64,000 nucleotides of DNA, from assembly GCA_003219465.1 (NCBI GenBank), contig QHOX01000162.1:4500-68499 (forward strand). The letters run 5' to 3'. Positions 699 to 64,000 of this stretch are shown here, piece by piece; within the stretch, counting starts at the first letter, position 1; each line of letters opens with the position of its first letter. The position numbers and the translations under genes are program-made. The stretch comes from Verrucomicrobiota bacterium (GTDB lineage: Bacteria > Verrucomicrobiota > Verrucomicrobiia > Chthoniobacterales > UBA10450). The notes beneath the pieces are model-generated. The model saw nothing but the letters and a program-made list of their open reading frames with translations, searched no databases and was not told where the DNA came from.

Positions 699-3404
699 CT
701 AACGCTTTTGGTGATGCAGCGACGGGTCGACGACCGCTGCCATCACGGTCTCGTTAGGCAGTTGTTCCGCGCCGAGAAACTGGACGAGGCGCGAGACAAT
801 TGACTGCGGATCCCGCACCAGCGCGGGATAATCGATTTCGATGAATTTCATGTGCCGTGCGGTCCTTAGCCACCGCAGCGTTTCCTCGCGGTGCGCTGTG
901 AGACCGCGCTGTAGTTGCTCGGGGTCGAGTTCGGCACCTTTCGTTCCTAGCCGGTTCACCATCTGGTGTTGTGAGGCAACAACCTCTTCGATTGGCCGGG
1001 TCATAAAAATGACCTTGTAATCATGTTGCAGAGGCATTCTCGGCAGCAGCATGGAGATGCATTTGATTGCGCGGCCTTTAACCGCTTCGTCATCGAGCAG
1101 CTCGGGTCTTTTCCCGATCTGCTTGATCGCTTCCCATTCATAATAGCCGCGCGGGTTATCTGCATCCGCGACGCGTTCTCCGTCGGTCATCAGCGGCATT
1201 CCACCAGCCTCGAGCAACTGCATCATGAGCGATGTGCCCGACCGCGGCAGGCCTGAGACAAGGACGAACGTCTTGCCGGACTTTGTTTCGTCCGCGGGCT
1301 TCGGATCGGGGCGTTCTTTAAGCAGAATCGCGAGTCGCTCGTCCCGTTTCGGAATCTCGGGAAGATCGAATAGTTTCTCGCGCTTCGAGTCCGCGCCCAC
1401 GGAACGCCGGCCACGGCTGCGGGTCAGTCGAAAGACTTCGCTCCGATGGAACTCTGCTTTCTCGCGGTTGCCTCCCTCGCTCTTGTGGATGGTCGCGAGA
1501 TATCGGTGGGCATTTATCATGTCCGGCTGGAAACGCAGCGCGGTTTCAAACGCCACGCTCGCGCGCGCGGTCTCACCGGAACGCGCCAGCGCGACACCGA
1601 GATTGAAATGCGCCAGCGGGAGGCGGTGCAGCAGACTCACTGCCCGTAACGCGCAATCCACCGTCTGCTGGTTGTCGCCGAGTCGGCGATAGACGGTTGA
1701 CAACCCTTGAAAGGCGAGCGCGTTGTCCTCGTCTAGGGCGATTGCTTTTTCGTAAGCAATTTTCGCGTTCTGCCACTGGAGCAAACGGGCATAAGTGTCC
1801 CCGATCTGGATGTAAATTCCTGGCAGTTGCGAATTCATCGCTTCGGCTCTGAGGAGGGCTTGCAAAGCACCACCGAGATCGCCACGCGCGAGTTTGATTC
1901 TTGCCCATAACAGCGTCATCCCAGCCGTGCCCGGCTCCGCACCATCGGCGATAGCGAATAGCACACGTTCCGCCTGCGCCAGATAACCGCCCTGGTAATA
2001 ACAAGCCGCCAGCTGTGTGAGAAACCGATCTTCCCAAGGTCGCCGCCTAACGATCTCTTGCAGTAGCGGCTGGGCCTGGTCGGGCCGATTTTTCCATAGA
2101 TAGGTGCGCGCGACATTGTATTTCGCTTCGATCTCGGCCGACTCCGCCATCTTCTCCTTGTCGGCGCTCGGATCTTCGATGTAACCGAGGGCGGCGAACT
2201 GCTGCATCAATTCGTTAGCTTGTTCACGATCTATCTGCTGGCCCGCTACGTGCATCCCGCATTCACCGGAAAATTTTTCCCAGCTCGGGATCGTCTTCAC
2301 GCTCGGCGGAACCTCGAACGCTTCAAGCAACGGCCGGCCGTCCATATCTTCGCCGATCGGAATGTCAAACAGGGTCAGGACGGTCGGCGCAATATCGATC
2401 AAGCTCGCGCCATAGATGCGTTCGTCCCGCTTGATGCCCGACCCCGCCATTACAAATATTCCATACTGCCGGTGCCAGACCGCCGGGCCGGCTGGCTCGC
2501 GGGGCACGCCGCGGGGACGTTGCGAGCCGGATTCGAAGCCGTGGTCGGAGCAAAGGATCACCGTCGCCTCCGGTCCGGCCAGCTCGAGCAAGCGTTCCAG
2601 CATCATGTCGTGAAAGCGGTACGCGCCCCTAACGACATCTTTGTAGAGCGCGAAATCCTCGTCTTTGATCCAGGGCAGCTTCGGCGGGTGATACGCCATG
2701 AAGGCGTGCGAGAAATGATCGATCCCATCGTAATAGACGGCGGTGAAATCCCACGGCTCGCCTTCCATCAGCGCGGTCGCTACCGCGTGGATGGATGCGT
2801 TATCGCTCAGGACTTTCGCAAATGAAATCAGCCGCTTGTCCTTTTGTTGATCGATCTTGGCCGCATCGGGAATGAAGGGCAGGATATGCGCCTCGGTCAG
2901 TTCGTTAGGGAAAACCTTGAACCGCGCAAGCTTCGGCCCGTTCTCGGGCGGATGGACTGTTCCTTTCGGAATGCTCCAGCCTTTCTCCGGATGGAACTTC
3001 ACTCCGCCAAACGCATTCGTCACGACCGTGCCCTTGATTGGCTCCGCGGGATGACTCGCCCACCAACCAACGATGTTACTCTGCAGACCGCGTTGGGTGA
3101 GAATATTCCAAAGCGCTTTGCATTTGCGCGAAGCGCTGCTGCAGGGGCGCGCGCCACCGTTGATCGGGTCCGGCTCGATGAAGCCGTGGATGCCGTGCTT
3201 ATCGGCAAATTTGCCGGTCGCGACAGAATTCCAGAGCATCGGCGAAAGAATTGGTTGGAGCGTCGCGAGATTGCCCATCACGCCGCGATTGATGAAGGTG
3301 TCGAGGGTCGGCATCAGACCTTCCTCGATCAGCGGAGTGATGTGCTCCCAATCGGCGGCGTCCCATCCGATCAAGAGAACTTTTCGCCGGTAAGCTTCAA
3401 CCAC
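699..3404 (-). CDS. three-domain protein: NPP/alkaline-phosphatase-like domain + TPR repeats + C-terminal sulfotransferase domain
   Basis: 901-aa ORF with a GTG start. N-terminal ~400 aa carry LLIGWDAADW, LSPMLWNSVATGKFADKHG and ILCSDHGF (AlkP-superfamily metal/nucleophile motifs). The middle ~230 aa are TPR-like helical repeats (e.g. AYEKAIALDEDNALAFQGL, ALRFQPDMINAHRYL). The C-terminal ~200 aa carry VLVSGLPRSGTSL (PAPS 5'-phosphosulfate loop) and FMTRPIEEVVAS (3'-phosphate motif). Confidence 0.8.
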   Translation of the reverse strand: MVEAYRRKVLLIGWDAADWEHITPLIEEGLMPTLDTFINRGVMGNLATLQPILSPMLWNSVATGKFADKHGIHGFIEPDPINGGARPCSSASRKCKALWNILTQRGLQSNIVGWWASHPAEPIKGTVVTNAFGGVKFHPEKGWSIPKGTVHPPENGPKLARFKVFPNELTEAHILPFIPDAAKIDQQKDKRLISFAKVLSDNASIHAVATALMEGEPWDFTAVYYDGIDHFSHAFMAYHPPKLPWIKDEDFALYKDVVRGAYRFHDMMLERLLELAGPEATVILCSDHGFESGSQRPRGVPREPAGPAVWHRQYGIFVMAGSGIKRDERIYGASLIDIAPTVLTLFDIPIGEDMDGRPLLEAFEVPPSVKTIPSWEKFSGECGMHVAGQQIDREQANELMQQFAALGYIEDPSADKEKMAESAEIEAKYNVARTYLWKNRPDQAQPLLQEIVRRRPWEDRFLTQLAACYYQGGYLAQAERVLFAIADGAEPGTAGMTLLWARIKLARGDLGGALQALLRAEAMNSQLPGIYIQIGDTYARLLQWQNAKIAYEKAIALDEDNALAFQGLSTVYRRLGDNQQTVDCALRAVSLLHRLPLAHFNLGVALARSGETARASVAFETALRFQPDMINAHRYLATIHKSEGGNREKAEFHRSEVFRLTRSRGRRSVGADSKREKLFDLPEIPKRDERLAILLKERPDPKPADETKSGKTFVLVSGLPRSGTSLMMQLLEAGGMPLMTDGERVADADNPRGYYEWEAIKQIGKRPELLDDEAVKGRAIKCISMLLPRMPLQHDYKVIFMTRPIEEVVASQHQMVNRLGTKGAELDPEQLQRGLTAHREETLRWLRTARHMKFIEIDYPALVRDPQSIVSRLVQFLGAEQLPNETVMAAVVDPSLHHQKR

Positions 3405-10683: not shown

Positions 10684-11460
10684 TCACAATTTCCAATCTG
10701 AGCAATCCCAGCCCAGCATCTGTTCAACCTCCGCGATGTCTTCTGCGAACAGGTGGTAAAGGAAAACGCGTTCCTCCCAGTTCATCCCCCGTTCGTATGG
10801 CACGATGTTTCTGTCTTTGTTGCGCACCGACCGCAGAGGTTTGCAGCCAAGGAATGAGAGAATCGAGGTGAGGGTTTCGCGCCGCTTTGCTTTGAAGTTT
10901 TCGAACTTTACCGCCTTTACGTGCTCACGCGGAAAAAATTTGAAGAGGCGCTCGAGTTGGCGTCCGTAAAAACCACGATCGATGTAGGCAAAACGCCGGG
11001 CATCAACGGGAGGCGCACCGCTGATGCGCGTTTGCTCTTCGCGCACGGCGTCGAAAAAATCCAGCGGTTCCCGGCCTTTGAACCGTTGCATGTTCCAATG
11101 CGCAAACGCGCGCTCGATCGGGTTACGCAGAATGATCAATAATTTGATTTTCGGATTGTAATTCCAGATCCGTTCCGCCGCCGGCTCGTGATAAAGATAA
11201 CTGGGTGTGCAATCGCCAGCGATCATTGACTGAGTAAGGGGCCGATAGTGTTTGTGCAGTTGCTCGTAATCGGGCTCGGAAACGAACAGCGCATCGTTAT
11301 CGAAGAAATGGATTTCCTGCTTATCGCCCATGCAGATATCGGGATGTCTGCTCAGGAAGTAGTGCAGCGCTGTCGTGCCGGATTTTTGCGCGCCGGCCAG
11401 AATGAAGTCGAGCCGGTCAATTTTGCGGCGCTTGCTTCGAAACATTGGGGAAATGTACAT
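10684..11460 (-). CDS. sulfotransferase family protein
   Basis: LDFILAGAQKSGTTALHYFL (5'-PSB loop) and LIILRNPIERAFAHW (3'-PB motif). Start placed at the ATG at 11460 (MYISPMFRSKRRK). The longer ORF to 11553 overlaps the divergent S46 gene. Confidence 0.8.
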   Translation of the reverse strand: MYISPMFRSKRRKIDRLDFILAGAQKSGTTALHYFLSRHPDICMGDKQEIHFFDNDALFVSEPDYEQLHKHYRPLTQSMIAGDCTPSYLYHEPAAERIWNYNPKIKLLIILRNPIERAFAHWNMQRFKGREPLDFFDAVREEQTRISGAPPVDARRFAYIDRGFYGRQLERLFKFFPREHVKAVKFENFKAKRRETLTSILSFLGCKPLRSVRNKDRNIVPYERGMNWEERVFLYHLFAEDIAEVEQMLGWDCSDWKL

Positions 11461-11559
11461 CGCGAAGCCTGTAGGGGAAGCTGACAGCTTCTCCTGCAAA
11501 CTGGCCTCGAAACGAAGCACGTAGTTGTGGCCTTTGTGCGTGCCCTCTATCATTCGCGC

Positions 11560-34770: not shown

Positions 34771-35423
34771 TCCTCACGTTCACGGGTTTTATTCTCATCC
34801 CGGAGACCAGTTCGCAGCTCTATGGGGATATCCCATGGGCGGAAGTGGTGCAGCGGCTTGCATATGAGAACGACAAACTGGCTCGGCGTCCGCAGGGACA
34901 TAACGGCGAATACTTTGTCGTGTGCACGCTCTATTACACACCAAAGGAATCGGGTTTTACTTTCGAGCGGGGCTTTGACGCGACGCTGGTTACAAAACCC
35001 GGCTTGCACGGCCGAAAATATCCGCGCGATTTTTTGCGCTCTGTAAAAAAGGAAGGCTTCGGCCGAATTACGACGCCTGTTAACGGACGATACTACATCC
35101 GCTACAACGGCAGCGATTCCTACGCGTTTACTTCAAATGCCACAGGTGGAGGCGGTGTTTTGGTGCCGCGCTATTCAGCGGCGATGAAGGGAGGGCACGG
35201 TGGCTTGCGCCGCGGAGCGGTTATAGAGACAACTTCCCCGGAGCTTCAGAAAATCTTCGGCAGCAACCGCTGGAAGATCATGGATACCGGCGGCGGCCTT
35301 CGGCGGTGGCAAATCGATTGTTATTTCGGCGAAGATGAACCGCTCGGGCCCGGCAAGCTCCAAGGTCGTCCGCGTGCGACGACTTTTGAGTATGCTTACG
35401 CCAACGTGCGAATCTTAAATTGA
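34680..35423 (+). CDS. 3D (MltA-like Asp-Asp-Asp) domain protein, membrane-anchored or secreted
   Basis: C-terminal IMDTGGGLRRWQIDCYFGEDE (3D signature). Hydrophobic WRLILTFTGFILI near the N-terminus. Start uncertain (ATG at 34680 or 34707). Either start overlaps the upstream gene by 64-91 nt. Confidence 0.6.
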   Translation: METTTLRIRMEATSCRNSNRWSYRIGFWRLILTFTGFILIPETSSQLYGDIPWAEVVQRLAYENDKLARRPQGHNGEYFVVCTLYYTPKESGFTFERGFDATLVTKPGLHGRKYPRDFLRSVKKEGFGRITTPVNGRYYIRYNGSDSYAFTSNATGGGGVLVPRYSAAMKGGHGGLRRGAVIETTSPELQKIFGSNRWKIMDTGGGLRRWQIDCYFGEDEPLGPGKLQGRPRATTFEYAYANVRILN

Positions 35424-35424
35424 C

Positions 35425-36171: not shown

Positions 36172-36177
36172 TGAGTT

Positions 36178-52720: not shown

Positions 52721-53490
52721 GATGCGCGAGGGATCTGCGTAGCGCAATTGATGTGACAAAGAAAAGATCGCGGCGCCAAGGCCGCTCCCAGATTCGTAAG
52801 CGCCCATTCGTGATCGCCACCTTCGCGATGACTACCGATGGCAAGGTCACAACGAAAAACTTCGGGCCGGTTGATTTCACTTCCCGTGAAGACAAGCTGC
52901 ATTTGTTTCGACAACGCGCCTTGGCGGATGCGGTCTTGTTAGGACATACAAGTCTGGAACGCGACAACGTCCGGCTCGGCTTGCCAGCGGAACTGCAGGA
53001 AATGAGGATCAAGAGCGGTCAAACTCGCTCACCGCTGCGAGTGATCGTCTCGAACAAAGGCAAGATTGATAATCGGCTGAAGATCTTTCAATCTGACCTT
53101 TCGCCAATCATTATCTTTTCCACCAAACGAATGCCGCGGAAAAACCAGAAAGCGTTACAAAGAAAAGCTACGTTGCACTTAACCGACGCCCGGCACGTCG
53201 ATCTTGCTGTGATGCTGGAAACATTGCGTAATCAATACAAAGTGCGCACGCTCGCGTGCGAAGGCGGGCCTACGCTTTTTCGAGCTTTATTGGAAGAGAA
53301 CTTGATCGATCAACTCAATCTGACAATTGCGCCGTTCATGTTCGGCGGAGCCACTGCGCCTACGCTCACAGGCCTAGGCAACAAATTCCTGCCCGCCAGC
53401 GTGCACTGCTCCTTGATCAAAATGCGCACGATCGAGAACGAATGCTTTCTGACTTATCGAATCAAGCACCAGCGGGGTCGTCGAAACTAG
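52717..53490 (+). CDS. RibD C-terminal domain / dihydrofolate-reductase-like reductase
   Basis: RPFVIATFAMTTDGKV and LACEGGPTLFRALLEENLIDQLNLTIAPFMFGG. GTGA overlap with the upstream gene. Start uncertain. Confidence 0.7.
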   Translation: MRCARDLRSAIDVTKKRSRRQGRSQIRKRPFVIATFAMTTDGKVTTKNFGPVDFTSREDKLHLFRQRALADAVLLGHTSLERDNVRLGLPAELQEMRIKSGQTRSPLRVIVSNKGKIDNRLKIFQSDLSPIIIFSTKRMPRKNQKALQRKATLHLTDARHVDLAVMLETLRNQYKVRTLACEGGPTLFRALLEENLIDQLNLTIAPFMFGGATAPTLTGLGNKFLPASVHCSLIKMRTIENECFLTYRIKHQRGRRN

Positions 53491-53495
53491 ACAAC

Positions 53496-53713
53496 TTTTT
53501 TTGCGTCGCGGCCGACGCACAAGTTCACCGCCACAATTTGGGCAAACGAAGTTTAATTGTTCGGAACACGTCGCGCAAAAATGTGCATTCGAAGCTGCAA
53601 ATCAATGCTATCCCGCCTGGTGTGAGAGCGGCTCCGCACTTTTCACATCCACTTTTCAGTTCCAGCGCCATTTTGTTTTTCGTTAACGGTGGCAGCGCTT
53701 GAGCTTCAGACAT
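53496..53713 (-). pseudogene. DUF1272 zinc-ribbon protein, frameshifted
   Basis: ORF 53525..53713 reads ..MALELKSGCEKCGAALTPGGIALICSFECTF and then loses the motif. Shifting -1 at the T5 run (plus-strand A5, 53577..53581) gives CATCSEQLNFVCPNCGGELVRRPRRKK, the expected DUF1272 C-terminus as I recall the family. The 3' end is uncertain. Confidence 0.6.
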
Positions 53714-53857
53714 GCCGCGGTGTTGAACAAGCGAAACCGGTTACGCAACGAAGTTATTGTCTCGCAACCGTTACCATCCACAAATTTCTGCGCAATCTGT
53801 GGATCGTTTTGATAACAGGGATGACTTCGCTGAGACGTCTCGTATTGAAGGGATTTG

Positions 53858-54604
53858 TCAGCCTAGCCTCCGCGATTCCCGGCGAATTCGCGCGGCCTCG
53901 CGCATGAAGTTTGGATTTCGAATGATCGTCGTAGCATTTTCCTCCGCTGAATCGCTTCGAACGAACAGCGACAAGCAATCTATCAAGCGTCTGCCGCGCC
54001 AGTTCACCAGCTCCTGAGTGATGCAATGCAGTCCGTTCTGCTCGCACAAACCGCGAAATAAATCAGCGGTCATGTCTGGGTTTCGATGATGCGCCCAATC
54101 GAGAATCTGCAGTTTGATCAACGGTTTCGCCAGCGCATCGGGGAGCCGTTCACGCAGCGAATTAACGTATTCGCCAAAATTGGAATGATGAATGAAACCT
54201 TTGCCGCCGATTTTCAATTTGGGTCCGAGTTCGCGGAGGTACGCCCCCACGACGTCGCGCTTCGTATGTACGAAGGAATCAAAACTGAAAACAAAATCGA
54301 CTGACGCATCGGGGATCATCGATAACGAGCGGCCATCGTTGAGACAACAGCGCACGTGCGGAGTGGACGCAAAACGCCGGCGACACGCCTCGATGCATTC
54401 GCTCGACTTATCAACGGCCCACAGCTTATCGCAGTAATCCTTCAGAAAATGCGTCCATCGTCCAAAGCCAGGCGCAATTTCCAAAATCGTGCCGGCTGGC
54501 AGGCAATCGCGAACACGCGGAAAAATTGTGCGGTCCCATTGCGCATGCGAGGTGCCCCACGGCGCCGACCATTCCTCGCCCGCCTCTTTCCAATCGTATT
54601 TCAT
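53858..54604 (-). CDS. class I SAM-dependent methyltransferase
   Basis: ILEIAPGFGRWTHFL (motif I), WAVDKS and FVFSFDSFVH. Confidence 0.75.
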   Translation of the reverse strand: MKYDWKEAGEEWSAPWGTSHAQWDRTIFPRVRDCLPAGTILEIAPGFGRWTHFLKDYCDKLWAVDKSSECIEACRRRFASTPHVRCCLNDGRSLSMIPDASVDFVFSFDSFVHTKRDVVGAYLRELGPKLKIGGKGFIHHSNFGEYVNSLRERLPDALAKPLIKLQILDWAHHRNPDMTADLFRGLCEQNGLHCITQELVNWRGRRLIDCLSLFVRSDSAEENATTIIRNPNFMREAARIRRESRRLG

Positions 54605-54637
54605 CTGGTGGCGACGGATTCAAACGATCTCATAAAT

Positions 54638-54664
54638 GTCATTCTGAGTGAAGCGATGAATCTC
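54638..54664. repeat. half-site of the interspersed repeat family (GTCATTCTGAGTGAAGCGATGAATCTC)
   Basis: Similarity to 17760..17786 and to 20337 and 31876. A rearranged, degenerate relative may lie at 56886..56913. Confidence 0.55.
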
Positions 54665-55131
54665 TGAATGAACCTCCGTCTGTCGCCACGAATTTTCTTC
54701 ACCGGCATCGGTCAATTCAGTCGTCCGATATCAGACATCTGAGCTCTGCTCTCTTAACAATTGCTGGGAGCGGAATCCGACCGTCGACACGCGGATTTTC
54801 AGTCCATTCTTCCCACGAGGGAAACGCCGTAAAATCGTGGCCGCTACTCGTGCGGTAAATTCATTTGCATATCACAGTTTCAATGGAACATGTGTGCTCG
54901 TTTAACTTCGGCCTCAACCCGCAATGCACACGCGATTCTTGTTCCGTGATATGACACTGGATCAGTTGGCGCTGTTCATCGCTCGACAGCGCAGGCAGGA
55001 AGTTTTGCTGCGAAGAGTTCTGACGGAATTCGAATTGCTCCATTTGGCATAGCAATCGTTATCTTCTGCCACTCTTTATCAAGCAGATGACATGGAAGAT
55101 ATTAACCTGAAAATCTAGGACATTTACAAAT

Positions 55132-56883
55132 TTGGACGCTTCAATAACTCACAGTCACCTCATCCCTCCACATGGTGGCGAACTTATTAATCTCACTCTA
55201 GACGACGAAAGAGCGGCGGAACTAAAAGCCCAGTCGAGGGACTTTCCTTCGTGGGATTTAACGGCCCGCCACATCCGCGATCTTGAACTACTGCTGAACG
55301 GGGGTTTCTCTCCCTTACGCGCCTTCATGAACAAGGCAGATTACGAAGGGGTCTGCCACAATATGAAGCTGACGAGCGGCCTTGTCTGGCCGATACCGAT
55401 CACGCTCGATGTCACCGAATCTTTCGCTAAAACCCTGAAACCAGGCAGCAGCAAGATCGCGCTGCGGGATGCAGAAGGAGTAATGCTCGCGGCGCTTCAC
55501 GTGGAAGACGTGTGGCAACCGGATCGTAAAGCGGAAGCGAAAGCAGTTTTTAATACCACTAGCCCGCTTCACCCCGGAGCGAACTATCTGCTCAACAAAG
55601 AGAACCCATGGTATGTGGGCGGCCGTATCGAAGGTCTCCAACCGCCGTCGCATTACGATTTTAAGTATCTCCGTTTAACCCCAGCTGAATTGCGAGTCGA
55701 ATTCGCCCGGCTGGGTTGGCGCCGTGTGGTGGCATTTCAGACGCGTAATCCAATGCATCGCGCGCACGTAGAATTGACTCTTCGCGCAGCGAAACAGGTT
55801 GAAGCTAACCTGCTGATCCATCCCGTAGTTGGGATTACCAAGCTTGGCGACGTAGATTACTTCACGCGCGTGCGGTGCTATCAACGACTGCTCGCGAAAT
55901 ACCCGCATGGGACGGCAAAACTTTCCCTGTTGCCGCTGGCCATGCGCTTGGGCGGGCCACGGGAAGCGATTTGGCACGGCTTGATCCGAAAGAATCACGG
56001 CTGCACCCACCTAATCGTGGGACGCGATCACGCCGGCCCAGGCAAGGACGCGGACGGAAAGTCATTTTATGGACACTATGAAGCTCAAGAACTATTCAGG
56101 AAACACGAAGCTGCTATCGGCGTAAGCATGGTTCCGTTTAATATGATGGTCTATGTGGAAGATGAAGATAAGTATTTTCCGGAGGACGAAGTTCCCAAAG
56201 ATAAACACGTTTTGCACCTCTCTGGCACAGAATTGCGTCAGCGATTAAATGAAGGGCGCGACATTCCTGCATGGTTTACCTATCCCGAGGTCGTACAGGA
56301 ACTACGGCGCAGTTTTCCACCACGGCATAAACAAGGCCTGACAATCTTTTTCACTGGCCTCTCCGGCGCAGGCAAATCGACCATTGCCAGCGTTTTGGTC
56401 ACTAAATTTCTCGAAGTCGGTGGCAGACCAGTAACTCTTTTGGACGGCGATCTGGTTCGCAAGCATCTTTCATCAGAACTTGGCTTTTCCAAGGAACATA
56501 GAGATCTCAACATTCACCGCATCGGATACGTCGCTTCCGAGATCACCAAAAATGGCGGCATTGCAATTTGTGCTCCGATCGCGCCGTATGACTCCACTCG
56601 CAAACATGTGCGCGCCATGATCGAGCCAGTTGGCGGATTTATTATGGTGCATCTCTCCACGCCGGTTGACGTATGCGAACAGCGCGATCGCAAAGGTCTC
56701 TACGCGAAGGCGCGGGCTGGAATTATCAAGGAATTCACCGGCATTTCTGATCCCTACGAGGAGCCTACCGATGCAGAAGTGGTGATCAATACCGCCGAGC
56801 TCACACCCGAAGAGGCTGCGCAGGAAATCATCCTGCATTTAGAGCGTGAAGGCTTCATCGGACTTAATGAAGAACCGGCCTGA
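55132..56883 (+). CDS. sat-cysC: bifunctional sulfate adenylyltransferase / adenylylsulfate kinase (PAPS synthesis)
   Basis: LIPPHGGELINL, VAFQTRNPMHRAHVEL and VGRDHAGPG (ATP sulfurylase). C-terminal FFTGLSGAGKSTIASVL..LDGDLVR (APS kinase). TTG start, with no in-frame ATG nearby. Confidence 0.9.
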   Translation: MDASITHSHLIPPHGGELINLTLDDERAAELKAQSRDFPSWDLTARHIRDLELLLNGGFSPLRAFMNKADYEGVCHNMKLTSGLVWPIPITLDVTESFAKTLKPGSSKIALRDAEGVMLAALHVEDVWQPDRKAEAKAVFNTTSPLHPGANYLLNKENPWYVGGRIEGLQPPSHYDFKYLRLTPAELRVEFARLGWRRVVAFQTRNPMHRAHVELTLRAAKQVEANLLIHPVVGITKLGDVDYFTRVRCYQRLLAKYPHGTAKLSLLPLAMRLGGPREAIWHGLIRKNHGCTHLIVGRDHAGPGKDADGKSFYGHYEAQELFRKHEAAIGVSMVPFNMMVYVEDEDKYFPEDEVPKDKHVLHLSGTELRQRLNEGRDIPAWFTYPEVVQELRRSFPPRHKQGLTIFFTGLSGAGKSTIASVLVTKFLEVGGRPVTLLDGDLVRKHLSSELGFSKEHRDLNIHRIGYVASEITKNGGIAICAPIAPYDSTRKHVRAMIEPVGGFIMVHLSTPVDVCEQRDRKGLYAKARAGIIKEFTGISDPYEEPTDAEVVINTAELTPEEAAQEIILHLEREGFIGLNEEPA

Positions 56884-57057
56884 ACGCGAAGCGAAACTCA
56901 TTTTGAGAATCTCGTGGCACGACGCACACAGCTATGCGTGGACGGCGGCGATGCACTCGAGAACACAACGTTGAAAACGGTATCTTCACGTCCGTTCGCA
57001 CGCGATACGCAGGACGAGGCCTTAGGGACTGATCCGGAAAAAACGCGGAGGCGAGTC

Positions 57058-58443
57058 ATGGTCATTGGACTGGACTGCGCAGCGCCCGAATTGGTCTTCG
57101 ATCGCTGGCTTGATGAGCTACCAAACTTGAAGTCGATCTGCCGAAGCGGTCTGTACGGACAGCTTCGCTCGTGCGATCCGCCTATCACAGTGCCGGCGTG
57201 GTCGGTGATGATGTCCTCCAAGAGTCCTGGCCGGCTTGGAGTTTACGGGTTCCGAAACCGTGCGGATTACTCCTACGACCGCTATTCCATCGCCAACTCG
57301 CTTGCGATTAAAGAGGACCGGCTCTGGGACATCCTATCGCGCAGTGGAAAACGCTCCATTGTAATAGGCGTTCCGGGAACCTACCCACCACGCCCTCTGA
57401 ATGGCTTAATGGTAACAGACTTCCTCACTCCAGACACGACCTGCCAGTACACGCATCCGTCTGAACTCAAACAGGAGATCGAGCAGGTGGTTGGCGAATA
57501 TATTTTAGATGTGCGTGATTTTCGGTCCGGCAACAAGGAGAAGATTTTGGGCGATATCTATGAGATGACCCGGAAGCGCTTCCAGCTCGCACGGCATTTA
57601 CTGGCGAAGGAAGATTGGGATTATTTCATGATAGTTGAGATGGGCATGGACCGTATCCACCATGCGTTTTGGGACAATATGGACCCGGCTCATCGCTTGT
57701 ACGAGCCCGGCAACAAATTTGAGAATGCGATTCATGACTACTACAGAGAGGTGGACCGTGAAATCGGCGCGTTGCTCGCGTTTGCCGATGACGCGACGGC
57801 GGTGCTTGTGGTCTCTGATCACGGTGCCAAACGTATGGATGGCGGCATCTGCGTTAACGAATGGCTGATTGCAAATGGCTATCTCGCCCTCGCCGAAAAG
57901 CCTGCCCGCGCAACGCCGTTCTCTAAAGTCAAAATTGATTGGTCCCGGACGAAGGCATGGGGCGACGGCGGATATTACGCACGTATCTTTCTCAACGTCG
58001 CGGGCCGCGAGCCAAACGGAACCATAGCACCAGGAGATTATGAGAAAGTGCGTGACGACTTGACTGCTGGACTCAAAGCAATTCCGGATGAAAACGGACA
58101 CGAAATCGGCACGCAAGTTTTCCGGCCGGAGGAACTCTATAAAGAGGTGCGCGGCGTGGCGCCGGATCTAATCGTTTATTTTGGCGCTCTTTTCTGGCGC
58201 TCGGTTGGCAGCGTCGGCGACGGAAAAATACACACCTTCGAAAACGACACTGGGCCGGACGGAGCCAACCACGCCGAGAATGGCGTTTTCCTTTTCCGCC
58301 CGACTAACGGCGGCATTTCAGGGGGACGGCAAGTGGACGGGCTGCGGATAATTGATGTTGCGCCCACGATTTTGCGTTTATTTAGGCTGCCGATTCCGTT
58401 AGATATGGAAGGTAAGGCACTCGCCTTCGTCAACTGTGATTAA
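57058..58443 (+). CDS. NPP/alkaline-phosphatase family protein (paralogue 2)
   Basis: MVIGLDCAAPE, PPITVPAWSVMMSSKSPGRLG, VVSDHGA and GANHAENG. GGAGG 6 nt upstream of the ATG at 57058. Confidence 0.8.
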   Translation: MVIGLDCAAPELVFDRWLDELPNLKSICRSGLYGQLRSCDPPITVPAWSVMMSSKSPGRLGVYGFRNRADYSYDRYSIANSLAIKEDRLWDILSRSGKRSIVIGVPGTYPPRPLNGLMVTDFLTPDTTCQYTHPSELKQEIEQVVGEYILDVRDFRSGNKEKILGDIYEMTRKRFQLARHLLAKEDWDYFMIVEMGMDRIHHAFWDNMDPAHRLYEPGNKFENAIHDYYREVDREIGALLAFADDATAVLVVSDHGAKRMDGGICVNEWLIANGYLALAEKPARATPFSKVKIDWSRTKAWGDGGYYARIFLNVAGREPNGTIAPGDYEKVRDDLTAGLKAIPDENGHEIGTQVFRPEELYKEVRGVAPDLIVYFGALFWRSVGSVGDGKIHTFENDTGPDGANHAENGVFLFRPTNGGISGGRQVDGLRIIDVAPTILRLFRLPIPLDMEGKALAFVNCD

Positions 58444-58477
58444 AGCCCAGCCAAGTAATTTTCTCAGTCAAATAAGA

Positions 58478-59494
58478 ATGGTGCGCGCCAGGGCACCTCT
58501 GCGGTTGAGCTTCGGTGGCGGCGGCACCGATATCTCGCCCTATGCAGACACGCGCGGCGGCTGTGTGCTCAACGCCACGATTTCGCGCTACGTCTATGCG
58601 ACATTAGTCCCCAAGTCGGAACGTTCGATCGGCTTCCGCTCGTTCGATTACGGGACGGTGGTTTACTTCACCGAGGAGGAACACTTCGTCTTCAATGGTC
58701 AAATGGATTTGGTCAAGGGGGTGCTGAAGCGCTTCGAACTGGACAAGCTCCGCTCGGACGGCTTCGATCTTTTCGTCCATACCGATGCTCCGCCGGGCTC
58801 GGGCCTTGGCAGTTCCTCCACGTTCACCGTGGCGCTTATCGGCCTGTTTCGCGAGCTGCTTGGACTGCCGATTACACCCGGTGGCATAGCCGGCCTGGCT
58901 TACGACATTGAACGCAACGACGTAGGAATCAAAGGCGGCCGACAGGACCAGTATGCCGCTGCTTGTGGCGGTTTCAATTTCATGGAGTTCCATGGTGAAC
59001 AGGTGATCGTTACCCCGCTGCGACTCAGCGATTTTGTCATCAATGAACTTGAATACAACCTGCTCCTTTGTTCCATGGGAAGCCGCGAATCCCAGCCAAT
59101 CATCGGCAGCCAGATGGAAAGTATGAAAAATAAGGATGCTGAGCCTCTTGCGGCGATGGACAAGGTGAAAGAAATCGCGATCGAGATGAAAAAGGCGCTA
59201 CTACTGGGAGACCTCGATCGTTTTGGAGACATGCTTCATGAGGGTTGGTTGCAGAAGCAAAAAATGGCGCCGGGCATTACAACGCCGCATATCGACGAGC
59301 TTTACTCGGAAGCACGCAAGGCTGGCGCCGTCGGCGGCAAGATCACCGGGGCAGGCGGAGGCGGCCACATGATGCTCTACTGCCCGTTTAACAAACGCCA
59401 CATAGTCAGAGAGCGTCTCACTGCGATGGACGCGCGGGTTATTGATTTTCGATTTGACGCGAGTGGGATGCAGACGTGGCGCGTATATAAATGA
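58478..59494 (+). CDS. GHMP family sugar kinase (HddA/GalK-like)
   Basis: RAPLRLSFGGGGTDISPY, TDAPPGSGLGSSSTFTVA (motif II) and KITGAGGGGHMM (motif III). Confidence 0.8.
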   Translation: MVRARAPLRLSFGGGGTDISPYADTRGGCVLNATISRYVYATLVPKSERSIGFRSFDYGTVVYFTEEEHFVFNGQMDLVKGVLKRFELDKLRSDGFDLFVHTDAPPGSGLGSSSTFTVALIGLFRELLGLPITPGGIAGLAYDIERNDVGIKGGRQDQYAAACGGFNFMEFHGEQVIVTPLRLSDFVINELEYNLLLCSMGSRESQPIIGSQMESMKNKDAEPLAAMDKVKEIAIEMKKALLLGDLDRFGDMLHEGWLQKQKMAPGITTPHIDELYSEARKAGAVGGKITGAGGGGHMMLYCPFNKRHIVRERLTAMDARVIDFRFDASGMQTWRVYK

Positions 59495-59571
59495 TTTGAT
59501 CCCAACACCTCGGTTAATCGAATTTTGAGCGGACTTACGTACGGCATTATATATATCAATCTGCTTCCGAC

Positions 59572-61305
59572 ATGAAAAAAGATCCAAAGGTGGCAATCAT
59601 AGGATTGGATGCGGCGACCTGGACACTTATTCGTCCGTGGATGGCCGAAGGCAGCATGCCGAATCTGGCAAAGTTGATGAAGGAGGGCGTGTCGGGAACA
59701 CTCCGATCGATTCTTCCACCAATTACGCCGCCGGCATGGACTTCGTTCATGACCGGCAAGAATCCTGGCAAACACGGCGTCTTTCATTTTATCGAGACCG
59801 CAGCCGACAGCTATGCGATGAATTATGCCAACGGTGGTTCACGCCGGTCGCCCACAGTCTGGAAGATACTCAATGACGCGGGATTCAGTGTGGGGACGAT
59901 GAATATTCCGTTTACCTATCCGCCTGAGGCGCTGGATGGTTTTCAGATTTCGGGCTTGGATACGCCATCGCCCAATAGCGAATTCGTCTATCCAGCGTCC
60001 CTGAAACGCGAGCTGGTCGATCATTTGGGCAAGATTAATCATGATCTTCGCTTCCTCGGGAACATGTCTACGGACCACCGGCGGGCTCAAGTGGTGGCCG
60101 AGATGGAAAAGATCGACCAGCAGTGGGCCGCAGTCGCTCTTTACCTTCTGGAACGCCATCCGCAAGACGTGATGATGTTCGTCTTCATGTCGATAGATAC
60201 AGTCCAGCACTACTTTTGGCAGTACATGGACAGCAGTCATTTTCTTCACGACCCGAAGGCAGGGGCTCGTTTTGGAAATGCAGTGCGTCAGGTGTACGAA
60301 CGACTCGACGCGGTGACCGGCCGGATAATCGAGAAGCTTCCCAAAGAGACGACGGTCTTCGTTGTCTCCGACCACGGCGGTGGCCCGGTGGTCGATCGCA
60401 CCGTGTTTTTAAACCGATACCTGCATCACCTCGGGCTTCTACACTACCGGAAGGACGAAAGCGGCGGCGGAAAGCGACGCGGTGCGCTACGCAAGATTAA
60501 ATTAAAAATCCTGCAAGGCGCATATTCGTTTCTGCGTAGCGTGCTCTCGTCACGCCAGAAGAGCCTTCTTGCCGAAATGTTTCCCAGACTTAGGAAGAGA
60601 GCGGAACTCGCCTACACATCATTTGTAGATATCGATTGGACTCGTACCAAAGCGTTTTGCAGCGAAGTGCTCGCCTCGCCGCCGAACATCTGGATTAACC
60701 TGAAAGGGATAAAACCCCGTGGCATCGTGGAACCTACCGAGTACAGCGCGCTGACTGACTTTATCATTGAGAAATTGCGGGAGCTCAAAGATCCGCGAAC
60801 CGGCAAGCCGATAATCGCCCGCGTTTATCGACGCGACGAGCTCTTCCACGGTCCGTTTTCCAACGAGGCCGCCGACCTCATTGTCGATTGGTGGAGCGAA
60901 GACAGTCTTTTCTCGACGGCGCCAAGTTTGGCCAAGGACCGCGACAAGCCGGCGGTCATTATTAGCGAGCATCGCCCATCTGAAGATTCCGTCTGGGGCG
61001 GCACGCATCGTCGCGACGGGATTCTCGTTGCCACGGGACCGGGCTTAAAGAGAGGAGCGGAGATCGAAAACGCACAACTCATCGATTTCGCTCCGACGGT
61101 TCTCCATCATCTTGGCTTGGCTGTCCCAGAGGACATGGATGGCCGCGTCCTGGCGGACGCATTTCGGCCGGAATTTTTAGCCGCGCATCCTGTCAAAGCG
61201 GGCGCTGCCTCCGGTATTTCCGAGAGCGATCGCTCGAGCGGTTACACCGACGAGGAGTCTGCCAAAGTCGAGGAACGCCTCCAAGCGCTTGGCTATTTGG
61301 AATAG
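59572..61305 (+). CDS. NPP/alkaline-phosphatase family protein (paralogue 3)
   Basis: VAIIGLDAATW, PPITPPAWTSFMTGKNPGKHG, FVVSDHGG and WGGTHRRDG. Confidence 0.8.
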   Translation: MKKDPKVAIIGLDAATWTLIRPWMAEGSMPNLAKLMKEGVSGTLRSILPPITPPAWTSFMTGKNPGKHGVFHFIETAADSYAMNYANGGSRRSPTVWKILNDAGFSVGTMNIPFTYPPEALDGFQISGLDTPSPNSEFVYPASLKRELVDHLGKINHDLRFLGNMSTDHRRAQVVAEMEKIDQQWAAVALYLLERHPQDVMMFVFMSIDTVQHYFWQYMDSSHFLHDPKAGARFGNAVRQVYERLDAVTGRIIEKLPKETTVFVVSDHGGGPVVDRTVFLNRYLHHLGLLHYRKDESGGGKRRGALRKIKLKILQGAYSFLRSVLSSRQKSLLAEMFPRLRKRAELAYTSFVDIDWTRTKAFCSEVLASPPNIWINLKGIKPRGIVEPTEYSALTDFIIEKLRELKDPRTGKPIIARVYRRDELFHGPFSNEAADLIVDWWSEDSLFSTAPSLAKDRDKPAVIISEHRPSEDSVWGGTHRRDGILVATGPGLKRGAEIENAQLIDFAPTVLHHLGLAVPEDMDGRVLADAFRPEFLAAHPVKAGAASGISESDRSSGYTDEESAKVEERLQALGYLE

Positions 61306-61320
61306 TTACGAAGAAAAGCT

Positions 61321-61968
61321 ATGTTTGAAAACATTCGCGCCGATCTTCGTCGCAAAACCACCGCCTTCGGTGTGCGCCCGGAAGATCAGACCTTTTTTCG
61401 TAAACGAATCACACCTTTTCTCGAGTTCGGCACCTTTGCCGTCATCGTCTATCGCTTCGGTTCCTGGGCCTACAAAGTCAAAGTCCCCATCATTCGCCAG
61501 ATTCTCATCGCGCTTTATCTCTTCATCAATGTCGCGTGCATGATCATAACGGGGATTCACATCTCGCGCGAAAACGACATCGGGCCGGGTCTGGTTGTCC
61601 ATAACTTTTGTGGCATTCTCGTCCTGGCGAAAAAGATCGGCCATAGCTGCACTCTCAATCAGGGGGCCAGCATCATGAACGTGCGCGGCGTCGGCCGTGC
61701 GACGATTGGCAACAACTGCTATTTTGGCGCCGGTTGTAAGGTTGTCGGAGCGATCACAATCGGCGACAACGTCGTGGTAAGCCCAAACTCTCTTGTGATC
61801 ACCGACGTGCCAAGCGGCGCGACGGTCCTCGGAGTGCCTGCGCGAGTTATTTCGCGGGAGGCGACCAGCCCCTATCTCAAGAACCCCATCATCCCAGTTA
61901 GCCCTGAGGCAACAAATGATTCCAAACCGGCCACCCGCGTGCCGGCTTCGACTTCGGGTGTCTCGTGA
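61321..61968 (+). CDS. hexapeptide-repeat O-acetyltransferase (serine acetyltransferase-like)
   Basis: IGPGLVVHNF.GILV..IGHSCTLNQGASI..IGNNCYFGAGCKVVGAITIGDNVVVSPNSLV..VPSGATVLGVPAR (LbH repeats). Confidence 0.8.
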   Translation: MFENIRADLRRKTTAFGVRPEDQTFFRKRITPFLEFGTFAVIVYRFGSWAYKVKVPIIRQILIALYLFINVACMIITGIHISRENDIGPGLVVHNFCGILVLAKKIGHSCTLNQGASIMNVRGVGRATIGNNCYFGAGCKVVGAITIGDNVVVSPNSLVITDVPSGATVLGVPARVISREATSPYLKNPIIPVSPEATNDSKPATRVPASTSGVS

Positions 61969-63248
61969 CAAATCCGACTTCCACGCAGCGCAGCCGGAAA
62001 GGCGGTTATTCGCTCGCGATGGTTGCGGCCTGTCCTTTCCCAGCCAATCACGGCTCGGCCGCGAGTATCCGGGAAATGTCCGACACGCTCACGGATATGG
62101 GTCACGACGTTCATATCGTGACTTATCCCTTCGGCCAGGAGGATATCCACGTGCGCCGGGCAAAAGTGCATCGCACGGGACCTTTTCGCCCCGAGACAAA
62201 CGCCAAGGTTGGCCCATCGTCTGAGAAATTTTCTCTCGATTTTCAACTCCTGCGATTGCTCTGCCGGGTCATTCGAAGAGAGAACATCGAGATCATTCAC
62301 GCCCATAACTACGAAGGCGCCCTGATCGGCATCCTGGCCAAGTGGCTTACGCGCCGCCCCCTGCTCTATAACGCGGTCAATTTGATGAGTGACGAGCTCG
62401 CCGGGTATAACTTCATTCGCCCGGCATGGCTGGCCCACGGCATCGCTCGTGGCTTGGACTGGTTTACGCCGATTTTCCCGGACCACATCACGGCCGTATC
62501 ACCGGAGCTGCGCGAGTGGTTTCTGGAAAACGGCGTCCGGGCGGCCAAGGTCGATATGGTGCCGGCGGGGATCGAGCCGGATTTGTTTGACCACCCGGAG
62601 CCCGAGAAGTTTCGACAACAGTATCAACTCGATGGCCGGCCGGTGGTCATGTACACAGGCGTTTTGAACGCGTTTCAGCGGATCGATTACCTGTTGGCCG
62701 CGTTTGCGGTCGCTTTGCGCGAACGGCCAGACGCGCTCCTCCTCGTCGTTAGTCCGCTGGTCTCTGAAACGCACGAGCGCGCACATCGACGGTTCGCGCA
62801 AGAGCTGGGAATCGCCGATTCGGTGATCTGGATTTCTCCACATTCCTTGAGAGATTTACCGAGTTATCTCGCCCTAGCCGATGTCGCGGTCGTTCCGCGA
62901 CCCGAATGCCCGGGTCATCCCGTCAAGCTCCTCAACTACATGCTGGCAGGCCGGCCGATTGTTTCCTTCGCCGGCGGCGCCAAGGGGGTGCGCCATTTGT
63001 ACGACGCCTACATTGTGCCGAATCACGATTGCGAGGCACTCGGCCAGGGAATTCTCGCCCTCCTTAAAGATCCTGCGCTGGCAGCGAAACTCGGAGCCAG
63101 CGCGCGCGCCACGGTCCTGGCCAACTTCGACTGGCGGCAGATTTGTGAGAAGATCGAGTGCATTTACGACAAACTTCTGGCTGTGCCGAGCAAGGCTGCC
63201 GCCCGTGCACAGAACCAATCTGCGCCCTTTGCTACGCGCGTGCGGTAA
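61965..63248 (+). CDS. GT4 family glycosyltransferase
   Basis: MVAACPFPANHGSAASIRE, YTGVLNAFQRIDYLL and VVPRPECPGHPVKLLNYMLAGRPIVSF. GTGA overlap with the acetyltransferase. Confidence 0.85.
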   Translation: MTNPTSTQRSRKGGYSLAMVAACPFPANHGSAASIREMSDTLTDMGHDVHIVTYPFGQEDIHVRRAKVHRTGPFRPETNAKVGPSSEKFSLDFQLLRLLCRVIRRENIEIIHAHNYEGALIGILAKWLTRRPLLYNAVNLMSDELAGYNFIRPAWLAHGIARGLDWFTPIFPDHITAVSPELREWFLENGVRAAKVDMVPAGIEPDLFDHPEPEKFRQQYQLDGRPVVMYTGVLNAFQRIDYLLAAFAVALRERPDALLLVVSPLVSETHERAHRRFAQELGIADSVIWISPHSLRDLPSYLALADVAVVPRPECPGHPVKLLNYMLAGRPIVSFAGGAKGVRHLYDAYIVPNHDCEALGQGILALLKDPALAAKLGASARATVLANFDWRQICEKIECIYDKLLAVPSKAAARAQNQSAPFATRVR

Positions 63249-63267
63249 CGCGTTAACACTTTTCCCA

Positions 63268-63891
63268 ATGGCGTCGCCAATTGCACACAGTTTCGCTGGG
63301 TTCTGGACTTTTCTTGCAGCGAGAGGGCGCTTCAAAACTCGATTGACTGCGCACTGGCGCCAATATCTCCCGCCTCTCGGAGTGCTGATACTGCTCGCTA
63401 ATGCGCCTGATCTAGACTTGTTCCTAGGGAACGCACTGCATCGCGGTTTCACGCACAGTCTGACGGTCGCTGTGGTGATATCAGTGGCTTTAAGCTGCAT
63501 ATGGCGGATCGCGCCAGGATTTTGGCGAAGTGCCATTCTTTACTTCACGGCGTACAGTTCACATCTCTTGATCGACTTTTTTACCGGAACCAAGATCGGG
63601 TGGACTAATACTGGATTTGGTATGCCGCTGTTCTGGCCTTGGCACAAGACTTTTAGCTCGCCGTTGATATTGATTTTTGGTATCCACCATAAAAATTTTG
63701 CGGCATTATTTAGTCTCGACAACGTTTGGGCGTGCACTTATGAAACACTGACTTTTGGTGCGATTACCGTAGTAGGGTTTGTTTTATGGAAACGAAAACT
63801 GAAATCGCGGATATTAGGGAAACCAAAACTGAAGTCGCGGACAAAGCGTCCGATATCCGAAGCCCCGACACATCTTCTTTCCAACCTGTAG
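63268..63891 (+). CDS. membrane-bound metal-dependent hydrolase (DUF457/YdjM-like)
   Basis: MASPIAHSFAG.., ANAPDLDLFLG..HRGFTHSL and SSHLLIDFFT. ATG at 63268. The ORF-track extension back to 62881 overlaps the GT4 gene. Confidence 0.7.
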   Translation: MASPIAHSFAGFWTFLAARGRFKTRLTAHWRQYLPPLGVLILLANAPDLDLFLGNALHRGFTHSLTVAVVISVALSCIWRIAPGFWRSAILYFTAYSSHLLIDFFTGTKIGWTNTGFGMPLFWPWHKTFSSPLILIFGIHHKNFAALFSLDNVWACTYETLTFGAITVVGFVLWKRKLKSRILGKPKLKSRTKRPISEAPTHLLSNL

Positions 63892-63941
63892 TATCAAAAA
63901 AGAAAAGCCTCGGGCCATCTTCCCAGACTGCAGGACCAAAA

Positions 63942-64000
63942 ATGAGACGCTGGCACTGGGTAATCTTTGTCGTCATCTGTGTGCTTCTAGGACTTCTTGT
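63942..64000 (+). CDS. start of a membrane-anchored protein, 3' end outside the window
   Basis: ATG at 63942 reads MRRWHWVIFVVICVLLGLL and runs off the edge. Too short to classify. Confidence 0.3.
   Translation, partial: MRRWHWVIFVVICVLLGLL

Follow-up and report, generated by a model that had tools for sequence, protein, structure and literature searches.

Pyrophosphate (PPi) is a product of both ATP sulfurylase (Sat) and the nucleotidyltransferases, and pyrophosphatase, pyruvate kinase and ATP sulfurylase/adenosine 5'-phosphosulfate (APS) kinase make up the classical enzyme mix for preparing 3'-phosphoadenosine 5'-phosphosulfate (PAPS) in vitro. The archaeon Thermococcus onnurineus NA1 has a gene cluster given in PMC4463584 as encoding APS kinase (gene TON_1704), a pyrophosphatase (gene TON_1705), a 3'-phosphoadenosine 5'-phosphate (PAP) phosphatase (gene TON_1706) and ATP sulfurylase (gene TON_1707). 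For Pyrococcus yayanosii, PMC8268124 describes the cluster PYCH_17530-17560, in which PYCH_17550, annotated as 'type I phosphodiesterase/nucleotide pyrophosphatase', is flanked by the genes for a DHH PAP phosphatase and an APS kinase. The values reported for TON_1705 acting on PPi in PMC9653972 are a pH optimum of 9.5, a Km of 18.8 uM and a kcat of 2.1 per s. Fusions of ATP sulfurylase with inorganic pyrophosphatase are known in eukaryotes, namely stramenopiles and haptophytes (PMC2275785). Here we set beside these systems a gene cluster from a Chthoniobacterales bacterium (Verrucomicrobiota, UBA10450) at the end of what we call the window, the whole 64,000-nt stretch analysed (positions 4,500 to 68,499, forward strand, of contig QHOX01000162.1, assembly GCA_003219465.1). 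A gene for a PAPS synthase, SatCysC, is followed there by one for a protein of the nucleotide pyrophosphatase/phosphodiesterase (NPP) type, NPP_A (56914..58443, + strand), which is one of three NPP-like paralogues in the window.

We think it probable that this cluster belongs to an envelope-glycan locus of ~20 kb found in Chthoniobacterales, headed here by a sulfate-activation module in which NPP_A serves as pyrophosphatase. SatCysC would convert sulfate and 2 ATP to PAPS, while NPP_A, as a cytoplasmic two-metal hydrolase of the NPP fold, most likely hydrolyses the PPi released by ATP sulfurylase and probably also that from a sugar-1-phosphate nucleotidyltransferase; its removal of PPi would pull these unfavourable nucleotidyl transfers forward. 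The sequence of NPP_A is best read as that of a PPi-removing accessory of PAPS synthesis, an enzyme kind already known; in bacteria the protein would correspond to TON_1705, the NPP-type pyrophosphatase of archaea. Downstream, an HddA/WcbL-like heptose kinase and a hexapeptide O-acetyltransferase would form a glycan module, a second NPP-like protein (NPP_B) with a GT4 glycosyltransferase another, and the membrane protein YdjM a further one; a membrane-fusion protein (MFP), an outer-membrane factor (OMF), a Wzx flippase, a tetratricopeptide-repeat (TPR) membrane protein and a GT-C glycosyltransferase encoded beyond the window would see to assembly and export.

We read NPP_A as a pyrophosphatase because an archaeal member of its family, 52% identical to it, stands in the same gene order as the TON_1705 cluster. 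This member is found in L172, a locus of a metagenome-assembled genome (MAG) of the Jordarchaeaceae (Asgard; GCA_038871775.1), with the order Sat - DHH - NPP - APS kinase. Other archaeal loci are arranged as APS kinase - Sat - NPP (L171, Theionarchaea; NPP 51% identical to NPP_A) or as NPP - Sat (L170 and L088, Thermoproteota-type MAGs). The whole order at L172 (1-8400) is GT2 - Phosphodiest - Sat - DHH - Phosphodiest - APS kinase - NTP_transferase, the first Phosphodiest protein having 526 aa and 28% identity to NPP_B; two diverged NPP paralogues around PAPS genes occur in archaea too.

NPP_A is remarkably well conserved, with orthologues at 55-67% identity in Anaerolineae, Cytophagia, Nitrospiria, Terriglobia, Actinomycetes and Thermodesulfobacteriota. 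In 14 of the 25 distant loci in this identity range the NPP_A gene has Sat and/or APS kinase as its immediate neighbour; in 10 of those 14, Sat and NPP_A make up a single ORF that is followed by APS kinase, a fusion that we verified by Pfam in two loci (L070 and L067). In Anaerolineae and Cytophagia such Sat-NPP-APS kinase modules are free-standing units without glycan genes around them. A full-library search for the clade of NPP_A (the A clade) yielded 3,504 representative clusters at E <= 1e-30, and the fusion architectures seen among its long members were Sat-NPP, APS kinase-NPP, NTP_transferase-NPP, NPP-pyruvate kinase-Sat, NPP-pyruvate kinase and NPP-GT2. The tie between NPP-like enzymes and PAPS synthesis that the initial annotation had proposed from this one locus is thus borne out across phyla by fusions to ATP sulfurylase, APS kinase, nucleotidyltransferase and pyruvate kinase; its view that no pathway could be named for this tie is not supported as regards NPP_A, given the TON_1705-type pyrophosphatase as described in PMC4463584, PMC8268124 and PMC9653972. 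Among the fusion proteins, a triple fusion of 1151 aa (P0361) joins NPP, a pyruvate kinase barrel and ATP sulfurylase, and a double fusion of 786 aa (P0382) joins NPP and pyruvate kinase; together they resemble a self-contained module that generates PAPS and regenerates ATP.

The fold and the active site of NPP_A agree with its family assignment (PF01663, 161 bits against a cutoff of 23). Its AlphaFold (AF2) model (pLDDT 94.8, pTM 0.93) has ENPP1, Xanthomonas (Xac) NPP and ENPP5/6 as nearest solved folds (TMq 0.55-0.59, 12-16% identity), and the best PDB fold matches of the NPP_A and NPP_B models taken together are ENPP1, Xac NPP, ENPP5/6 and PhnA, with probability 1.00; a phmmer search of NPP_A against PDB chains gave no match. 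The three paralogues, NPP_A, NPP_B and NPP_C, are 28-34% identical to each other (A vs B 34%) and share the invariant residues D10, T48, D202, H206, D258, H259 and H409 (A numbering throughout), the nucleophile being Ser in C. Besides this catalytic core, R160, R203, K262 and R321 are conserved in at least 92% of 48 A-clade sequences and D405 is invariant in them. NPP_A carries the clade signature R70 N71 R72 R160 R203 K262 R321 D405. Among the A members linked to Sat, APS kinase, NTP_transferase or pyruvate kinase, R160 (K in one), R203 and D405 are common to all; every member except one, which has a gap there, carries R or K at 321, the residue at 262 is mostly K, R or Q, and R70, N71 and R72 are kept in most. 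Some of the basic residues lie close in sequence to metal ligands, R203 adjoining D202 and K262 being near H259, and we infer that the basic residues of the A clade bind PPi.

These positions read differently in the other two paralogues. NPP_B has I-E-T at 70-72 and S or M, T, G, and I or V at 160, 203, 262 and 321 (160 and 321 depending on the alignment); NPP_C has I-E-P at 70-72, D at 160, H at 203 and E at 262, and its cap domain is missing entirely. Because NPP_A has the signature residues and B and C have replacements, we assign NPP_A to the PAPS-linked clade as a true member and place NPP_B and NPP_C outside it. One function shared by all three was considered and rejected, since B and C are without the A-clade basic residues and C is without the cap. 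The initial annotation had spoken of a thrice-duplicated enzyme; what we find is three proteins diverged in function, of which B tracks the GT4 gene and not the PAPS genes. The (T/S)-G...HG motif that it ascribed to all three holds for B and C, and A reads S-S-K...LG.

Several points weigh against a pyrophosphatase role for NPP_A. The other 11 of the 25 distant loci have different neighbours, among them sulfatase, PHP, acyl-CoA dehydrogenase and glutamate dehydrogenase genes; neither the GT2 fusion partner (P0277) nor the frequent ArnC-like GT2 neighbour releases PPi; most close relatives have NPP_A in a glycan cluster without Sat nearby; and the cluster in the window encodes no nucleotidyltransferase. 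Sequence cannot reveal the substrate specificity of NPP_A. Its orthology to TON_1705, as proposed here, rests on a shared Pfam family and identical synteny and not on a direct alignment. The 120 relatives listed for the archaeal query, a Thermoproteales member, included none from Thermococcales or from any other complete archaeal genome. The role that we give to NPP_B below is a guess.

Some of the distant neighbourhoods merit description. At L085 (9893-12345, Terriglobia) an A-type NPP gene is followed by one for a 292-aa PHP-domain protein; a 3',5'-bisphosphate nucleotidase has been characterised within the PHP family, and this could be another pair of pyrophosphatase and PAP phosphatase. 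L072 (8784-12891, Terriglobia) has the order Wzy_C - GT2 - NPP_A - sulfatase. At L004/L058 (10001-14025, Nitrospiria) and L005 (74-4612) genes for an A-type NPP and a small GT2 adjoin those for an AMP-binding enzyme and an 88-aa ORF. AMP-binding enzymes are adenylate-forming and release PPi. L005 also has an NPP_B - GT4 - YdjM unit followed by PP-binding and Condensation/thioesterase genes, and the neighbours in these three loci are hints of an acylated product in some lineages.

In the window, seven complete + strand ORFs and a partial eighth lie between 55132 and the window end, all co-directional in the ORF list. We assigned families with Pfam and NCBIfam profiles, using PDB matches as an added check. 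SatCysC (55132..56883, +) has PUA_2, ATP-sulfurylase and APS_kinase domains and scores 911 bits with NF004040 (cutoff 669); its TIGR00339 and TIGR00455 domains both exceed their cutoffs, so both catalytic domains are there, and the kinase P-loop GLSGAGKST is found in the translation. After NPP_A come a GHMP sugar kinase of HddA/WcbL type (58436..59494, +; GHMP_kinases_N and GHMP_kinases_C), NPP_B (59572..61305, +; PF01663), a left-handed beta-helix (LbH) O-acetyltransferase resembling SAT, EpsC and WcaB (61321..61968, +; Pfam Hexapep), the GT4 glycosyltransferase (61965..63248, +; Glyco_transf_4 and Glycos_transf_1) and a YdjM/DUF457 inner-membrane protein of a metal-dependent hydrolase family (63268..63891, +; PF04307, 57 bits). 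The eighth ORF (63942..64000, +) is the 5' end of a gene for an MFP (HlyD/RND-adaptor-like): the last 59 bases of the window translate to MRRWHWVIFVVICVLLGLL, an N-terminal transmembrane (TM) helix, and an MFP takes that position in relatives.

There is an 8-nt overlap between the ORFs of NPP_A and the kinase, the LbH stop overlaps the GT4 start in the GTGA at 61965-61968, and the remaining intergenic gaps measure 15-77 nt. With its two overlaps and short gaps, the layout fits one operon. Where NPP_A starts is ambiguous: candidates range from 56914 to 57058, the true start probably lying within 56971-57058, with a GGAGG preceding the ATG at 57058, a candidate start; depending on this choice SatCysC ends 31-175 nt upstream of NPP_A. 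A scan of 53400-64000 with Rfam found no riboswitch or other family, and promoter and terminator scans did no better than chance level. These results agree with the eight closely spaced co-directional genes of the initial annotation, which lie at or near the positions it gave, and with its families and its coupling of LbH to GT4 through GTGA. Most of its gene starts held too, except that YdjM starts at 63268 and not at 62881 and that the start of NPP_A is ambiguous.

Relatives of the cluster were surveyed in three orthologue contexts, 80 genome loci and 80 metagenome loci; the genome scan of relatives was queried with A-type sequences only. A protein encoded in a soil 'Verrucomicrobia bacterium' MAG matches NPP_B at 100% identity, and the nearest genome loci are from Chthoniobacterales and 'Candidatus Udaeobacter' MAGs. 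About 50 Chthoniobacterales loci have a common order, [SatCysC or ArnC-like GT2] - NPP_A - GHMP kinase - NPP_B - LbH - GT4 - (YdjM), with YdjM directly after GT4 in many, which continues as MFP - outer-membrane efflux protein - Polysacc_synt (Wzx-type) flippase - polytopic TM+TPR protein - (448-aa protein) - PMT_2 GT-C. Since this order runs on past the window edge, the window holds the 5' half of a locus of ~20 kb. The possibility raised in the initial annotation, that the genes are juxtaposed by chance, is answered by this order: the neighbourhood is genuinely conserved. The previously unannotated 293-aa downstream protein of the relatives is the polytopic membrane and TPR protein, and the 448-aa protein has a faint glycosidase-like match only; both were considered as a missing sulfotransferase and rejected on these grounds. 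The small GT2 that usually precedes NPP_A has its best matches, below cutoff, in ArnC and dolichyl-phosphate hexose transferases, and an ArnC-like GT2 pairs naturally with the downstream PMT_2 GT-C.

Within 50 loci spanning NPP_A to MFP, whose counts are uncorrected for relatedness, NPP_B and GT4 were both present in 44 and both absent from 6, with no discordant locus. The GHMP kinase and LbH went together almost as well (both in 35, neither in 11, discordant in 4). The kinase and NPP_B are independent of each other, NPP_B occurring alone in 14 loci and the kinase alone in 6. The adjacency of NPP_B and GT4 persists down to 44% identity. L132 and L136 are arranged as GT4 - NPP_B - sulfotransferase, the last being canonical with the PSB loop GAPKCGTTW, and L145 as GT4 - HddA-like - HddC-like - NPP_B.

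NPP_B (PF01663, 154 bits against the cutoff of 23) is modelled less confidently than NPP_A (pLDDT 84.4; TMq 0.44-0.50 to NPP folds), and phmmer of NPP_B against PDB gave marginal NPP and PhnA matches only. Its model includes a basic helical insertion of low confidence at about aa 297-350, which could mediate contact with the membrane or a partner. We take NPP_B to be a diverged, probably membrane-peripheral phosphohydrolase; its target may be a phosphorylated GT4 substrate or product. The best PDB matches of GT4 are Tll1590 (6kih), MshA, BshA and PimB, at no more than 58 bits; Tll1590 is a sucrose-phosphate synthase, and the acceptor of MshA is phosphorylated. From the likeness to Tll1590 and MshA comes the attractive but weak idea that GT4 might act on a phospho-acceptor from which NPP_B would remove the phosphate. 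NPP_B as a replacement for the heptose phosphatase GmhB was rejected, as NPP_B tracks GT4 and not the kinase.

Two further features of B-type proteins were seen. Their C-terminus (window 61200-61305) is an acidic tail, Y-x2-EE-x3-VEERL-x2-LGY-x-E, invariant in B-type proteins at 54-100% identity and ending LGYLE in the window. A soil metagenome contig (WNFU01000011.1; L163, 5400-13700) has the order NPP_A - small GT2 - three tandem B-type NPPs - YdjM, a local B-type expansion with members 39-48% identical to NPP_B.

NPP_C lies outside the cluster, at 699..3404 on the - strand, where the initial annotation had rightly placed a third NPP-like paralogue in a sulfotransferase fusion. By Pfam this 901-aa protein has a Phosphodiest domain at aa 9-294 (PF01663, 83 bits against the cutoff of 23), about 8 TPRs and a C-terminal Sulfotransfer_1/_3 domain at aa 714-881 with the PSB loop LPRSGTS. 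A stand-alone sulfotransferase (Sulfotransfer_1, Sulfotransfer_3; PSB loop AQKSGTT), 44 kb from the cluster, is encoded at 10684..11553 (-); the domain is as first annotated, and the ORF extends beyond the end given then, 11460, which is a possible start. We think it improbable that NPP_B and NPP_C make up a new sulfation-linked class of the NPP fold, as PAP-removing partners of sulfotransferases and glycosyltransferases or as PAPS-using sulfuryl transferases of the alkaline-phosphatase fold, in a cluster that would then build an envelope glycan with sulfate and heptose.

The evidence on sulfation of the glycan is mixed. The cluster's seven ORFs (55132-64000) have no sulfotransferase domain by Pfam or NCBIfam, in agreement with the initial annotation, and none was found among the genes of the downstream extension in relatives; the window's sulfotransferases stand 44-54 kb away. 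In this the cluster departs from PAPS-dependent sulfated-glycan clusters such as the NodPQ-NodH-type or sulfated EPS loci, where a sulfotransferase gene would be expected. Among 52 close relatives with readable upstream sequence, the slot before NPP_A holds SatCysC in 8 and an ArnC-like or larger GT2 in 33; operons headed by SatCysC are seen in the window and in about ten relatives. As the cluster has no sulfotransferase and SatCysC is here in a minority of relatives, a sulfated glycan from this cluster is no more than possible. The two sulfotransferase genes in the window imply that PAPS-dependent sulfation exists in the host organism.

The kinase scores 285 bits with the HddA model NF049969, under the equivalog cutoff of 600, and its PDB matches, at 233-273 bits, are WcbL (4usm, 4usk), 3k85 and HddA (4n3o). 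A GmhA-like isomerase gene lies upstream in ~33 related loci and also beside the Sat-NPP_A fusion of L067, and an HddC-like guanylyltransferase gene sits between the kinase and NPP_B in L145; the window cluster contains no gmhB or hddC. With an HddA/WcbL-like kinase here and GmhA- and HddC-like genes in related loci, a GDP-heptose-type sugar in the glycan is plausible. The LbH protein scores under the cutoffs for EpsC (NF041874, 77 bits vs 150) and CysE (TIGR01172, 66 vs 211) and matches PDB serine acetyltransferases at ~42 bits, and by sequence we class it as a generic LbH O-acetyltransferase.

How SatCysC and NPP_A relate to the glycan genes can be explained in other ways. They may serve assimilatory sulfate reduction or a general PAPS supply, their place before the glycan genes being incidental and the glycan unsulfated. 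This explanation, compatible with a pyrophosphatase role for NPP_A and differing only on the fate of PAPS, seems to us rather unlikely, although it would account for the few close relatives with SatCysC upstream (8 of 52, against 33 with a GT2), for the cluster's lack of a sulfotransferase and for the stand-alone Sat-NPP-APS kinase modules elsewhere. Where SatCysC is present, however, it is closely spaced and co-directional with the cluster, and the two window sulfotransferase genes mean PAPS-dependent sulfation in the organism. Nor did we find a reductive branch, which the initial annotation had imagined as cysH/cysI just outside the window: no PAPS/APS reductase or sulfite reductase appeared among the profile-scanned ORFs of the window, those of 16.5-26 kb being covered by motif scan only, and a scan for the cysH-type ECGLH/PP-loop motif met nothing save a chance ECGMH inside the NPP_C fusion. 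A function in clearing PAP, which sulfotransferases and PAPS reductase leave behind as an inhibitory by-product, would make NPP_A (and/or B and C) an analogue of CysQ. A-clade members adjacent or fused to APS kinase would fit this, as would the sulfotransferase fused to NPP_C, the sulfotransferases adjoining B-type genes in L132 and L136, and the PAP phosphatase genes that archaeal Sat/APS kinase clusters include according to PMC8268124. We give it little credence, since a separate DHH-type PAP phosphatase is encoded beside the archaeal NPP gene (L172, and the T. onnurineus cluster as given in PMC4463584), which implies another role for the NPP protein there, and since it would leave unexplained both the fusion to NTP_transferase and the direct fusions to Sat; these objections concern NPP_A, and for B and C a role of this kind may still hold.

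A bolder proposal follows from the initial annotation's sulfated glycoconjugate: in a dedicated pathway, one or more NPP-like paralogues would replace the sulfotransferase, moving the sulfuryl group from PAPS or APS by a ping-pong mechanism through the Thr nucleophile. The alkaline-phosphatase superfamily includes sulfatases, shows promiscuous sulfuryl transfer and has other transferases that move phospho-groups, which could serve as a model. PAPS is made, yet neither the cluster nor its downstream extension has a canonical sulfotransferase; NPP domains recur by sulfation genes (the NPP_C fusion, L132, L136), and a sulfatase gene adjoins NPP_A in L072. We find the proposal very unlikely all the same. 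PPi removal is the better fit to the NTP_transferase, pyruvate kinase, Sat and APS kinase fusions, the stand-alone modules of Anaerolineae and Cytophagia have no acceptor-building genes, and an identity of 55-60% across phyla suggests a universal small substrate and not a variable glycan; canonical sulfotransferases are encoded elsewhere in the window, and most relatives lack SatCysC at this position. The archaeal counterpart was moreover assayed as a pyrophosphatase, as reported in PMC4463584 and PMC9653972. Most unlikely of all, in our estimate, is an NPP-like paralogue in place of GmhB, as the D-glycero-D-manno-heptose 1,7-bisphosphate 7-phosphatase of the GDP-heptose pathway. The HddA/WcbL-like kinase, its 8-nt overlap with NPP_A, the GmhA-like genes of the ~33 related loci and L067, the gene order at L145 and the lack of any HAD-type GmhB seen in these clusters speak for it, but 14 loci have NPP_B and no kinase and 6 have the kinase and no NPP_B, Sat-fused NPP_A comes from genomes in whose loci heptose genes are not seen, and the archaeal Sat/APS kinase clusters have none either.

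Elsewhere in the window, a protein with a Peptidase_S74 domain (endosialidase chaperone; an intramolecular chaperone of tail-fibre-like proteins) is encoded at 5577-6722 (-), adjoining the gene for a 485-aa pentapeptide-repeat protein (6991-8448, -). At 33643-37317 (+) there are co-directional genes for a NamZ-like exo-beta-N-acetylmuramidase, a 247-aa ORF that has no annotation, a protein combining a ubiquitin-like N-terminus with a Mut7-C RNase domain, and an S1/P1 nuclease.

With the pyrophosphatase reading of NPP_A, a function open to test, that of a pyrophosphatase dedicated to sulfate and nucleotide activation, can be proposed for thousands of proteins annotated 'alkaline phosphatase family protein' or 'AlkP superfamily phosphohydrolase/phosphomutase'. 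The sole experimental anchor of this proposed A-clade function is one little-cited archaeal study; TON_1705 was reportedly first characterised by Lee et al. (2009, J Bacteriol 191:3415), whom later papers cite. The Sat-NPP, APS kinase-NPP and NPP-pyruvate kinase-Sat fusions look like ready PAPS-generating modules that could serve enzymatic sulfation chemistry. A conserved envelope-glycan locus is also defined for soil Verrucomicrobia of the 'Udaeobacter' type, a lineage among the most abundant uncultured soil bacteria, and in it the NPP_B-GT4 pair is the real puzzle left.

Compared with described systems, the glycan part of the locus resembles two. The kinase is like the WcbL/HddA structures of the pathway to GDP-D-glycero-alpha-D-manno-heptose (GmhA, HddA/WcbL, GmhB/WcbN, HddC/WcbM); unlike the GDP-heptose capsule and S-layer clusters, the window cluster is without GmhB and HddC, and its kinase scores below cutoff. 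With Wzx/ArnC-ArnT-like polysaccharide loci the extended locus shares a flippase, a GT4, an O-acetyltransferase, mostly an ArnC-like GT2 and a PMT_2 GT-C; it differs from Wzx-dependent loci by its MFP and OMF pair, by YdjM and by the obligatory NPP_B-GT4 pair, and in the locus sequence examined we recognised neither Wzy nor Wzz nor an initiating phosphoglycosyl transferase.

Among the NPPs, Xanthomonas NPP and ENPP1/3/5/6 share with NPP_A the two-metal site with a Thr nucleophile and provide its closest solved folds. Unlike them, NPP_A is predicted to be cytoplasmic, with no signal peptide, is only 12-16% identical, has a ~140-aa extra cap domain between the SDHG motif and the last His, and reads T-x-P-A-W where NPPs have T-F-P-N-H; under COG3379 we found no relevant literature. 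The eukaryotic fusions are alike in tying PPi hydrolysis to ATP sulfurylase, which pulls the unfavourable reaction, and bacterial relatives of NPP_A are likewise fused to Sat; the eukaryotic partner is presumably a conventional soluble pyrophosphatase. It is not called NPP-type in PMC2275785, and NPP_A in the window is a separate gene. TON_1705 is alike in its family (PF01663), its partners (ATP sulfurylase and APS kinase) and the identical Sat-DHH-NPP-APS kinase order around the homologue in L172. Against it, the window has a bacterial host, a fused Sat and CysC, no adjacent DHH PAP phosphatase and an NPP_A gene inside a glycan cluster. The association of an NPP-like protein with PAPS synthesis is thus largely explained by a known, if obscure, enzyme type; the system kind itself is not new, and what the present locus and its relatives add is the fusions in bacteria, the family's breadth and the pairing of NPP_B with GT4.

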